Positions 54,591 through 56,387 of a stretch of DNA of 64,000 nucleotides are shown in pieces. How positions within the stretch are numbered: the stretch's first letter is position 1; each line of letters opens with the position of its first letter. The translations under genes and the position numbers were made by a program. The DNA is from Candidatus Aminicenantes bacterium. Lineage in GTDB: Bacteria; Acidobacteriota; Aminicenantia; S016-38. Under the pieces are notes generated by a model that worked only from the letters and a program-made list of their open reading frames with translations, ran no database searches and was not told the origin of the DNA. Where the stretch lies: NCBI GenBank assembly GCA_027068075.1, contig JAMOUJ010000006.1, forward strand, positions 346,706-410,705, read 5' to 3'.

Positions 54591-54664
54591 GCGGCTGTAG
54601 CTCAACAGGATAGAGCGTGGGATTCCTAATCCCAAGGTTGTGGGTTCGATTCCCGCCAGCCGCA
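54591..54664 (+). tRNA. tRNA-Arg (anticodon CCT)
   Basis: Hand-folded cloverleaf. 7-bp acceptor stem (GCGGCTG/CAGCCGC), D stem GCTC/GAGC, anticodon stem TGGGA/TCCCA with loop TTCCTAA (CCT), T stem GTGGG/CCCGC with TTCGATT loop, discriminator A. No encoded CCA. Confidence 0.9.
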
Positions 54665-54669
54665 CTTAA
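54621..54669 (+). repeat. Direct repeat copy 1 (49 bp): tRNA-Arg 3' half plus 5 nt; attL-like
   Basis: GATTCCTAATCCCAAGGTTGTGGGTTCGATTCCCGCCAGCCGCACTTAA. It is identical to the copy at 56339..56387. Confidence 0.85.
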
Positions 54670-55031: not shown

Positions 55032-55466
55032 TTACTTTATCATTTTTATTATAGGAAGAACCAATGGAGGTAATCCTGCTCTTACGGTTAAATCATGGAC
55101 TAGTTGACGGAAATATGGCCAAATATGAAGAATTAGGGTACTTTTAGCAAAAATCTCAAACATTTTCTTTGTGATAGAAACGCTGGTTCTATAATGAACC
55201 TTATATGAGGCATTTATTGCGAACTTTTCCCCGTTATTTCTTTCCGCCAACAAGAAAAAAGAGATATAAGCTGCGAAACCTTCTTCCGTTTTTTTGTAGC
55301 TGGTTTCTTCGTTTAAGGTAAGCTCAACTCCTGTAGGCTTAAATTCTTCATCTTTTTCCATAGAACATTTGATTAGTTGAATGCTATGCAGCTCCAATCC
55401 TTTTATGAAGTCTGCATATTTTTCCCTGAATTTCTTATCTAATTTCACGCTGCCCCCTCCTCCCAT
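55032..55466 (-). CDS. SecB-like chaperone (TAC-system chaperone candidate)
   Basis: Collinear similarity to SecB: LELHSIQLIKCSME vs SecB FQIQRIYTKDISFE, and C-terminal ILHIWPYFRQLVHDLTVRAGLPPLVLPII vs SecB [29 protein letters not shown]. 144 aa. It overlaps the hicB stop by 22 nt. Confidence 0.6.
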   Translation of the reverse strand: MGGGGSVKLDKKFREKYADFIKGLELHSIQLIKCSMEKDEEFKPTGVELTLNEETSYKKTEEGFAAYISFFLLAERNNGEKFAINASYKVHYRTSVSITKKMFEIFAKSTLILHIWPYFRQLVHDLTVRAGLPPLVLPIIKMIK

Positions 55467-55972
55467 TTATCTGTATATTCTATCTTAAGCGGTCGTTCTT
55501 CTATCATCCTCCACTCAAATTCTTCTAAGGTGTGGTGAAAGATATCTTTCAATTCTTTCTTGAGCTCATTTACTATTTCTTTCTTAAGATTATCTACCAT
55601 CTCTCTTTCTTTTAGAGCCTCTGAAAGTAAAGCTACAACTAATTGATTCAAGCTTATTCCTTCTCTTTTAGCTCTTTGAACTAACTTGCGATGAATGTAT
55701 TTGGGAATTCTTACAAGGAATTTTCCGCTGTATTCTTCCATCTCATAAGGAAGCGGAATCTTTCTGCCCATTTCTAAGGCTGTTTCTATCCACAATTCTT
55801 GAGCTTCTCTTATAGCATTGATTACATCTTCATAGCTGTCTCCTTCGGTCATACACCCAGGAAGTTCTGGGATTTTTGCAAAGTAGCCTTTTTCTTCTGG
55901 AATAATCACAATAGAGTAAGGTAAACTCATGAAATACTTAACTTTTTCCTTAATGTCATTTTTGGCTCTCAT
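55445..55972 (-). CDS. hicB: HicB-family antitoxin (UPF0150 RNase-H-like N-domain plus RHH-type DNA-binding domain) with about 50-aa C-terminal extension
   Basis: YSIVIIPEEKGYFAKIPELPGCMTEGDSYEDVINAIREAQELW is the UPF0150/HicB fold signature. SGKFLVRIPKYIHRKLVQRAKREGISLNQLVVALL is the HicB C-terminal DNA-binding motif. It is followed by a charged extension KEREMVDNLKKEIVNELKKELKDIFHHTLEEFEWRMIEERPLKIEYTDKWEEGAA. Confidence 0.8.
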   Translation of the reverse strand: MRAKNDIKEKVKYFMSLPYSIVIIPEEKGYFAKIPELPGCMTEGDSYEDVINAIREAQELWIETALEMGRKIPLPYEMEEYSGKFLVRIPKYIHRKLVQRAKREGISLNQLVVALLSEALKEREMVDNLKKEIVNELKKELKDIFHHTLEEFEWRMIEERPLKIEYTDKWEEGAA

Positions 55973-56213
55973 ACCATTCCTCCAAATCTAGTAAATCTCT
56001 GAGATGTTTTATGTATATCTTTTCTACCATTCGGCCCTTCCTAATTCTTATCGTTATCTCATATTCCCCTTTCACATAAATGAAATGATCTCCTCTTACC
56101 CGTCCTCTTTTATATCCAAAAAATTTAAGCACTGTTTCGACCTCCTCTTTTCTCATTTGGGAAGGTAAGTTTAACATCTTTCTTACAAGTTTTATTACCT
56201 TGCTCTTTGACAC
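55956..56213 (-). CDS. hicA: HicA-like mRNA-interferase toxin candidate (85 aa)
   Basis: Small basic protein immediately upstream of and overlapping hicB, the canonical hicA-hicB order. FFGYKRGRVRGDHFIYV loosely matches the HicA GSHH region. GTG start with a GGAGG RBS. The family assignment is weaker than for hicB. Confidence 0.45.
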   Translation of the reverse strand: MSKSKVIKLVRKMLNLPSQMRKEEVETVLKFFGYKRGRVRGDHFIYVKGEYEITIRIRKGRMVEKIYIKHLRDLLDLEEWYESQK

Positions 56214-56224
56214 TCACACCTCCA

Positions 56225-56252
56225 TTATACTAAATATGATACCAGTGTCAAC
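56225..56252 (-). promoter_or_regulatory. Sigma70 promoter (TTGACA-16-TATAAT) driving the hicA-hicB-secB-like operon
   Basis: Minus-strand TTGACActggtatcatatttagTATAATggaggtgtgaGTG. Consensus hexamers are immediately followed by the GGAGG RBS and the GTG start, giving a very short leader. Confidence 0.6.
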
Positions 56253-56338: not shown

Positions 56339-56387
56339 GATTCCTAATCCCAAGGTTGTGGGTTCGATTCCCGCCAGCCGCACTTAA
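56339..56387 (+). repeat. Direct repeat copy 2 (49 bp): partial duplicate of tRNA-Arg 3' half; attR-like
   Basis: Identical to 54621..54669. The upstream 20 nt (GCGGTAAGCTACCTCCTTC) looks like a decayed tRNA 5' part with the D-arm deleted. It cannot fold into a cloverleaf. Confidence 0.85.

Follow-up and report, generated by a model that had tools for sequence, protein, structure and literature searches.

A HicAB-type toxin-antitoxin-chaperone locus with a candidate chaperone-addiction tail on its HicB antitoxin in Candidatus Aminicenantes

A 64,000-nucleotide stretch of a Candidatus Aminicenantes bacterium genome (assembly GCA_027068075.1, contig JAMOUJ010000006.1, positions 346,706 to 410,705; hereafter the window) carries on its minus strand, between positions 55032 and 56213, three tightly packed open reading frames (ORFs) that form one operon: hicA, hicB, and a gene for a SecB-like protein. 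Sequence comparison, structure models, and analogy with characterized systems lead us to read this locus as a HicAB-type, three-component system of toxin, antitoxin, and chaperone (TAC), in which the long C-terminal tail of HicB would be a chaperone-addiction (ChAD) segment served by the SecB-like chaperone. We put the probability of this reading at about 0.8. An initial annotation of the window had proposed the same arrangement of toxin, tailed antitoxin, and chaperone, and it is upheld: the three genes share a strand, with overlapping start and stop codons and one consensus promoter upstream of them. The ChAD interpretation of the tail likewise gains support, from a predicted SecB fold whose nearest match is Rv1957 of Mycobacterium tuberculosis, from the occurrence of SecB-like neighbors, across homologous loci, solely beside HicB proteins that have tails, and from features of the tail itself.

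The antitoxin extends beyond its DNA-binding domain

The 175-residue translation of the hicB ORF is identical to the peptide quoted in the initial annotation. Pfam models HicB_lk_antitox (PF15919; residues 19-121, 47 bits) and the ribbon-helix-helix (RHH) domain HicB (PF05534; residues 79-116, 44 bits) both score above their cut-offs, and the region they cover stops at residue 121, so that the protein runs about 54 residues beyond the end of its DNA-binding domain. A Pfam scan of residues 122-175 gave no credible match. The HicB family profile matches the solved HicB structures 6U0I, 6HPB, and 6G1N, and the matched structures are 138-148 residues long.

A search with the whole HicB protein recovered 595 relatives. 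Short members of the same subfamily, 121-126 residues in length, end 14-23 residues past the SLNQ motif (P0026, P0042, P0113, and P0111), whereas the window HicB continues for 69. The SLNQ motif is invariant; the short examples include proteins from Alicyclobacillus (P0026, 126 residues) and Nostoc (P0113, 126 residues) as well as P0042 (125 residues). The earlier statements that HicB proteins normally end soon after the RHH/SLNQ region, and that this one carries a charged C-terminal extension of about 50 residues, are therefore both borne out by comparison with homologs: the extension comprises residues 122-175, lies outside the Pfam domains, and is absent from the short subfamily members. 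The extension peptide had been given correctly, but its start at 55610 had not, since the segment begins at K121 (55612), two nucleotides away. We calculate a probability of about 0.02 that 54 codons without a stop would arise by chance in DNA of 35% G+C content (GC); an identical HicB protein is also present in independent assemblies.

The downstream gene encodes a predicted SecB-fold protein

Profile searching widened the SecB-like family to 237 proteins, and an AlphaFold2 monomer model of the window protein was built on 87 of them. The model is of high confidence, with a predicted local distance difference test score (pLDDT) of 93 and a predicted template modeling score of 0.85. In it, four long strands come after an N-terminal helix and lead to a long C-terminal helix (residues 104-123), in agreement with the SecB fold, where a long helix follows an antiparallel sheet of four strands. 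In a Foldseek search its top match was 5MTW, the structure of Rv1957 with its ChAD peptide (template modeling (TM) score 0.80, E 2e-8), followed by SecB, the export chaperone, of Escherichia coli and Haemophilus influenzae with TM scores of about 0.7. The family profile has a significant match solely to 5mtw_C (E 1.4e-6). The PADLOC model PD-T4-9_C, which describes the chaperone of the PD-T4-9/CmdTAC defense system, also matches the window protein (7.8e-8). Residues L126-P127-P128-L129 align with L154-P155-P156-L157 of the M. tuberculosis protein and are nearly invariant in the 87 relatives; in M. tuberculosis these LPPL residues contact Y114 of the ChAD, and mutations there are among the most damaging to toxin-antitoxin (TA) control (PMC6377645). 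Together, the model and the sequence matches support assignment of the protein to the SecB fold and, within it, to the chaperones of TAC type.

Tailed antitoxins and SecB-like chaperones occur together

Eighty genomic loci were collected with the HicB core alone as seed, the length of the HicB tail was measured, and a downstream SecB-like ORF was sought with a hidden Markov model of the chaperone family. Enough downstream sequence was available at 76 of the 80. A SecB-like gene lies directly downstream at 9 of the 33 loci in which the tail is at least 30 residues long, and at none of the 43 loci with a shorter tail (Fisher p = 2.7e-4). Metagenome loci seeded on the chaperone give the same picture from the other side, in that the chaperone clade is preceded by a tailed antitoxin wherever the upstream gene is readable. 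The antitoxins in question are HicB proteins, 111-residue HicB proteins without the RHH domain (L090, L092), and HigA-like proteins with an XRE-type helix-turn-helix (HTH) domain (L086, L089, L091, L093); the tails on the latter two kinds contain Trp and mostly end in Ala. One clade of SecB-like chaperones, in other words, serves at least three antitoxin architectures.

The two closest relatives of the window locus keep the order hicA, hicB, SecB-like gene. Their HicB proteins are 59-65% identical to that of the window and their chaperones 49-56%, while their tails cannot be aligned to the window tail by BLASTP. Over 13 pairs, identity in the HicB core co-varies with identity in the chaperone (Mantel r = 0.83, p = 2e-4), and mean identity at aligned positions is 27% in the tails against 49% in the HicB core. 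Tails that accompany the chaperone clade were also compared in composition with tails of 30-75 residues that do not. Trp is present in 20 of 22 of the former and 5 of 15 of the latter (p = 7e-4), the density of aromatic residues is 10.5 per 100 with the chaperone and 5.4 without, and a final Ala ends 12 of 22 tails with the chaperone but only 1 of 15 without (p = 0.004).

Sequence and predicted structure of the tail

The tail segment as first delimited, 55 residues long, is 49% charged, with 11 Lys or Arg and 16 Asp or Glu residues for a net charge of -5; the HicB core is 30% charged. Its spacer repeat, MVDNLKKE followed by IVNELKKE, is encoded by a 24-nucleotide tandem repeat (55553-55600) whose two units are 79% identical. 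The helical spacer seems to have grown through local duplication, and the relative P0003 lacks about 15 residues there. AlphaFold2, run on the alignment of the HicB family, predicts that the second helix of the RHH domain carries on as one helix spanning residues 108-158; pLDDT exceeds 90 as far as about residue 140, is 83 for residues 141-150, and falls from 63 to 52 between residue 151 and the end. Residues 122-148 are a confidently predicted helix, while the last 25 or so residues are poorly ordered in the model (pLDDT 52-63). This second half of the tail, LEEFEWRMIEERPLKIEYTDKWEEGAA, holds F152, W154, Y166, and W170, which are four of the five aromatic residues of the tail (the other being F145), and ends in Ala-Ala, four residues from W170.

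In the three closest relatives the tail is invariant at just four positions, W154, E165, E172, and the terminal A175. E165 sits within a strand-like motif, K/E-I/F-E-Y/F/V. The relative P0003 keeps the invariant positions even though it lacks much of the helix. Tails recognizably related by eye are found only in P0002/P0004 and P0003, all of which precede SecB-like genes, and BLASTP of the tail against that of the closest relative returned nothing meaningful. The initial annotation had held that extensions of similar sequence, if common in stand-alone HicB proteins, would speak against a ChAD. With the tail alone as query, phmmer searched 1.84 billion representative proteins and returned no relative at E <= 1e-3, and we conclude that similar extensions are not common in such proteins. 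Tails of comparable length but of other sequence, on the other hand, are common. The sequence features support a match of the tail to published ChADs, namely a hypervariable sequence, aromatic residues, and an Ala-Ala terminus.

The same annotation had expected the tail to make the antitoxin aggregation-prone and protease-sensitive unless bound by the chaperone. The first effect is doubtful for a tail that is acidic and half helical and whose 49% charged residues argue against aggregation; sensitivity to protease, through the Ala-Ala end, is better supported.

Toxin, start codons, and promoter

A profile of 12 HicA orthologs matches the solved HicA structures 1WHZ, 5YRZ, and 4P78, and across these orthologs G41 and the His at the catalytic position, H43, are invariant. 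The window HicA and two relatives (L001, L098) have Gly-Asp-His at this site, where most HicA proteins, including others linked to TACs, have Gly-Ser-His.

The hicB 3' end does overlap the start of the SecB-like gene, as had been noted, by an extent that depends on the start codon: 22 nucleotides from ATG 55466, or 4 nucleotides (GTGA) from GTG 55448. On sequence grounds the GTG, and with it the 4-nucleotide overlap, is the more likely start, because public gene calls give a protein of 138 residues, because relatives have the same 4-nucleotide overlap, and because a Shine-Dalgarno sequence, GGAGGAGG, lies upstream of GTG 55448.

The promoter before hicA agrees with consensus at 12 of 12 hexamer positions, and the same hexamers with the same spacing stand upstream of hicA in the relative L098. 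Part of the spacer of the L098 promoter (L098 60-100) is a perfect inverted repeat, ATACTA-TATT-TAGTAT, which reaches into the -10 hexamer and of which the window has an imperfect copy. A HicB operator is a possible function for this inverted repeat. Table 1 gives the coordinates of these and other features of the locus.

Table 1. Features of the TAC locus and its insertion site, in window coordinates.
Feature	Coordinates	Strand	Basis or remarks
hicA-like toxin gene	56213..55956	-	85 residues, GTG start; Pfam HicA_toxin E 1e-3, under the curated cut-off
hicB antitoxin gene	55972..55445	-	175 residues with tail; stop codon 55447..55445; Pfam HicB_lk_antitox and HicB RHH
HicB C-terminal extension, residues 122-175, candidate ChAD	55609..55448	-	missing from short homologs; no family match
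Charged helical spacer with 8-residue tandem repeat, residues 125-140	55553..55600	-	24-nucleotide direct repeat; helix in AlphaFold2 model
Aromatic patch F145, F152, W154, Y166, W170, proposed chaperone-binding part of the tail	55463..55540	-	residue positions, conservation, low pLDDT
C-terminal Glu-Gly-Ala-Ala, ClpX-degron-like terminus	55448..55459	-	direct reading of the sequence
SecB-like chaperone gene	55448..55032	-	138 residues from GTG 55448; longest ORF from ATG 55466 (144 residues)
Sigma-70-type promoter TTGACA-16-TATAAT before hicA	56251..56224	-	12/12 hexamer positions
tRNA-Arg(CCT), insertion site of the module	54591..54665	+	ARAGORN; Rfam tRNA 72 bits
Direct repeat, first copy (tRNA 3' half)	54621..54669	+	perfect 49-nucleotide repeat
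Direct repeat, second copy (tRNA 3' half, duplicated), at the far edge of the insert	56339..56387	+	perfect 49-nucleotide repeat, 1718-nucleotide spacing

An insert at a tRNA-Arg gene

The module is a 1718-bp insert at the tRNA-Arg(CCT) gene, bracketed by a perfect 49-nucleotide duplication of the 3' half of the tRNA, and has a GC of about 35% against 50-58% in the flanks. Between the repeats there is no integrase, nor any gene besides hicA, hicB, and the SecB-like gene, and the 362-nucleotide spacer that separates the SecB-like gene from the tRNA has no notable ORF, matches no Rfam family, and is not out of the ordinary in structure (z = -1.5). In the closest relative, L098, a near-identical tRNA-Arg(CCT) follows immediately after the SecB-like gene, for which reason the cassette appears tied to this site; the L098 contig stops about 20 nucleotides short of the place where the second tRNA repeat would be expected.

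Two ideas about the mobility of the module were considered and rejected. A 1729-bp Logan contig that contains the module alone might have been an excised circle, but its length equals 1669 nucleotides of unique sequence plus two times 30 nucleotides, the length that a k = 31 unitig should have if it breaks at the repeats. An origin of the module from a phage or plasmid was also rejected: viral contigs gave just 2 weak matches to the chaperone clade, phage genomes likewise 2 weak matches, and its matches on plasmids are mainly from Thermus.

Other arrangements among the loci

The HicB subfamily carries C-terminal additions of other kinds that have no SecB-like neighbor. One is a fusion to a LuxR/GerE-type HTH domain, giving proteins of 222-240 residues, mostly in Dehalococcoidia/Chloroflexota. 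Another is a long conserved domain with the pattern 'WPGLK...AAGL...ELDERLFA.W', in proteins of 250-400 residues that are often followed by a TPR-like protein. HicB proteins with such additions include P0028, P0045, P0046, and P0056, and loci L009, L013, L019, L025, and L034.

At four loci from Bacillota/Clostridia metagenome-assembled genomes (MAGs), a tailed HicB is followed by an overlapping third ORF of 135-167 residues (approximate positions L037 3513-4016, L045 896-1303, L061 3511-3927, and L072 3457-3909). These ORFs end in '...TERFTN(V/L)P(F/I)ILPP' (more generally '...P-x-I/L-L/V-P-P'). Pfam finds nothing in them, and hhalign aligns them end to end with the SecB-like family at only 52% probability; they were not counted as SecB-like, and all four loci belong to the tailed HicB loci scored as having no SecB-like neighbor. 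From their sequences, they may represent a very divergent chaperone class.

On plasmid pVV8 of Thermus thermophilus HB8 (L101; NC_017767.1 11414-13180), hicA, hicB, a tailed HTH regulator, and a SecB-like gene form a four-gene array with a DUF1156 gene on one side and a Swt1-family HEPN gene on the other. Loci L089 and L091 have the same arrangement, and a homolog occurs on 23 Thermus plasmids. The RefSeq name of the pVV8 SecB-like gene product, 'helix-turn-helix domain-containing protein', appears to be a misannotation. In a WOR-3 MAG, a second and shorter SecB-like ORF of 123 residues (L001 1813-2184) lies 1.2 kb upstream of the HicAB-SecB module, with no obvious antitoxin before it. A Chloroflexi locus has a SecB-like ORF of just 100 residues, a partial match (L047 3450-3752), next to a HicB with a 34-residue tail, and may be a decaying TAC.

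Proposed mechanism and alternative explanations

By analogy with characterized TACs, HicA would be the toxin, presumably a ribonuclease with a catalytic histidine, which HicB would neutralize through its N-terminal domain while repressing the operon through its RHH domain. The charged helical spacer (about residues 122-148) would hold out the poorly ordered end of the protein (about residues 149-175), with its putative anchors F152, W154, Y166, and W170 and the final Ala-Ala. The SecB-like protein, whose translation is probably coupled to that of hicB through the GTGA overlap, would bind the aromatic anchors and in this way maintain a stable, active HicB, most likely through concealment of a ClpX-type Ala-Ala terminus. 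Were the chaperone titrated away, by unfolded clients or by a phage protein as in the E. coli systems HigBAC and CmdTAC, HicB would be degraded and HicA set free. Hiding of a degron is favored here over prevention of aggregation, the mechanism of the M. tuberculosis model, because W170 lies so near to the Ala-Ala end, because the tail is acidic and looks soluble, and because half of it is helical. Classical SecB-binding motifs are aromatic and basic, with acidic residues disfavored (PMC5105189), and recognition of this tail by its chaperone must therefore differ in detail.

A bolder version of this model can be offered only tentatively, since we believe it is rather unlikely to hold in full. 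Here the tail would depart from the M. tuberculosis model as an acidic, soluble type of ChAD, its short aromatic patch displayed next to Ala-Ala by a rigid, repeated helix, and the chaperone would act purely by hiding the degron, with no part in the prevention of misfolding. The whole would be a self-contained cassette of 1.7 kb that inserts at tRNA-Arg(CCT) without an integrase of its own, a minimal mobile switch sensed through its chaperone and possibly used in phage defense.

Several observations weigh against interpretation of the locus as a chaperone-controlled TAC. The window chaperone does not reach the cut-off of the Pfam SecB model PF02556 (24.4 bits against 26), although several members of its clade do (L003, for example, with 27.1 bits), as do many precomputed entries, and the window HicA, searched as a single sequence, scores 19.5 bits against a cut-off of 27 for Pfam HicA_toxin. 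The tail is acidic where both the classical SecB-binding motifs and the M. tuberculosis ChAD are basic and aromatic, and its first half is a confident helix in the model rather than a disordered region. Charge complementarity between tail and chaperone, sought in 19 pairs, did not appear as a negative correlation (Spearman +0.40, p = 0.09). The p-values for the association of tail and chaperone overstate the independence of the loci, which are related phylogenetically, and at 24 of the 33 tailed HicB loci no SecB-like neighbor was detected with the chaperone-family model. The HicB proteins of these 24 loci carry other kinds of tail, among them LuxR HTH fusions, the long 'WPGLK' domain, and various short tails. 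Because of them, a tail alone is not diagnostic of a TAC; the combination of tail and chaperone is.

The helix itself suggests a different explanation, in which the tail is a structural part of HicB, a long charged helix that extends RHH helix 2 and serves higher-order oligomerization or operator spacing, and the SecB-like protein has some other role, such as sensing a phage protein or acting on HicA. Such an explanation would suit the continuous helix through residues 108-158, confidently predicted to about residue 140, the 8-residue tandem repeat, which is typical of helical linkers, and the many other C-terminal additions found on HicB relatives, including LuxR HTH fusions and the long 'WPGLK' domain. 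It leaves unexplained, however, why the SecB-like neighbor is restricted to HicB proteins with tails, and why Trp-containing, Ala-ending tails occur on unrelated antitoxins before the same chaperone clade. Moreover, in P0003, the closest relative, the greater part of the helix's second half is missing, yet W154 and the C-terminal motif are kept, and we regard a purely structural tail as improbable. One might also see in the tail a generic, labile degron end that no chaperone specifically recognizes, with the SecB-like gene a passenger of the island, given that Ala-Ala is a common ClpX signal, that many antitoxins have disordered C-termini (PMC8165232), and that the tail has no motif in common with the core of the M. 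tuberculosis ChAD. A mere passenger is quite improbable in our judgment when a 4-nucleotide overlap, kept in relatives, couples the start of the SecB-like gene to the stop of hicB, when HicB core and chaperone are co-inherited to the extent measured by the Mantel test (r = 0.83), when the peptide-binding LPPL motif is conserved, and when aromatic residues are enriched specifically in the tails associated with the chaperone.

An island with no integrase, and with three genes and nothing else, could also be the inactive relic of an old insertion. Its three ORFs are intact, however, and come with a promoter of full consensus, with a Shine-Dalgarno sequence, and with start and stop codons that overlap; HicA retains the His at its catalytic position and the chaperone its invariant residues. 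The 49-nucleotide repeats are still perfect, which argues against long decay. Of the explanations weighed here, inactivity strikes us as the least credible, and a TAC with a ChAD-bearing HicB is the interpretation we carry into the comparison that follows.

Comparison with known systems

SecB-like chaperones associate with three TA families, HicAB, HigBA, and MqsRA (PMC5105189). A TAC of the HicAB type, from Methylomonas methanica MC09, was tested by Bordes et al. in 2016 and found to be chaperone-dependent, with a transferable ChAD (PMC5105189). Because this type has been described and tested, the window system is to be viewed as a further example of a known TAC class and not as a new kind of system. 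The M. methanica system (Mmet-TAC: Metme_2813, HicA; Metme_2812, HicB; and SecB-TA) has the gene order and antitoxin family of the window locus. Its 159-residue HicB continues for about 42 residues beyond the SLNQ RHH region and ends, according to a published primer, in ...EKQYA, with a small aliphatic residue. The window tail is unrelated to it in sequence, longer (54 residues), and strongly acidic, with a repeated helical spacer and an Ala-Ala end. ChAD tails are known to vary in both length and sequence (PMC5105189), and HicB proteins of TACs measure 159-162 residues against 116 for a two-component HicB (PMC5105189 supplementary figure 1).

For the chaperone, the best match in both structure and sequence is the M. 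tuberculosis TAC HigB1-HigA1-SecB-TA (Rv1955-Rv1957; 5MTW), although the two chaperones share only about 20% identity and the M. tuberculosis system is of the HigBA type, with an HTH antitoxin. Its ChAD is a C-terminal extension of about 45 residues with Trp and Tyr anchors, the peptide being held by W108, R110, and Y114 (PMC6377645), and the Val-Ala end of HigA1 is an aliphatic ClpX degron that shares its region with the chaperone site (PMC8165232); such degrons are not universal among ChADs. That ChAD has a basic core, W-x-R-x-x-x-Y, that is prone to aggregate, in contrast to the acidic, half helical tail of the window HicB.

In E. coli, HigBAC and CmdTAC (PD-T4-9, whose PADLOC model matches the window chaperone) provide further parallels. 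The HigA ChAD is anchored by four spaced aromatic residues, and the Ala-Ala end of CmdA, which is degraded by ClpXP, is a ClpX signal (bioRxiv 10.1101/2024.02.24.581848). In these systems, where the ChAD is recognized through spaced aromatics, the chaperones also sense phage structural proteins, a plausible trigger here as well. They differ from the window system in their toxins, HigB and the ADP-ribosyltransferase CmdT, and in the 96-residue length of the HigA ChAD with its four anchors. Unlike for these antiphage TACs, nothing at the window locus points to a role in defense: the island consists of the module alone, and its chaperone clade is nearly absent from viral contigs.

Two-component HicAB systems (E. 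coli 6HPB, Burkholderia 6G26/6G1N, and Yersinia 4P78, and the short relatives P0026, P0042, and P0113) have in common with the window locus the Gly-His motif of HicA and the plan of HicB, in which a toxin-binding domain at the N-terminus precedes a DNA-binding domain. They have neither a C-terminal extension nor a third gene, and a SecB-like neighbor is missing at all 43 loci whose tails are shorter than 30 residues.

Set against these systems, the window locus adds, from a lineage that is uncultured, a TAC of the HicAB type with clear boundaries, its antitoxin belonging to HicB, the rarest of the three families known to pair with SecB-like chaperones. The comparison across loci also suggests a rule for annotation, by which a tail with Trp and a final Ala, together with a stop codon that overlaps the start of a SecB-fold gene, marks a TAC antitoxin, while a tail alone does not. 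The chaperone clade is often unannotated or misannotated, as on the Thermus plasmid pVV8. The acidic tail would make a useful contrast case for client recognition by SecB-like chaperones.

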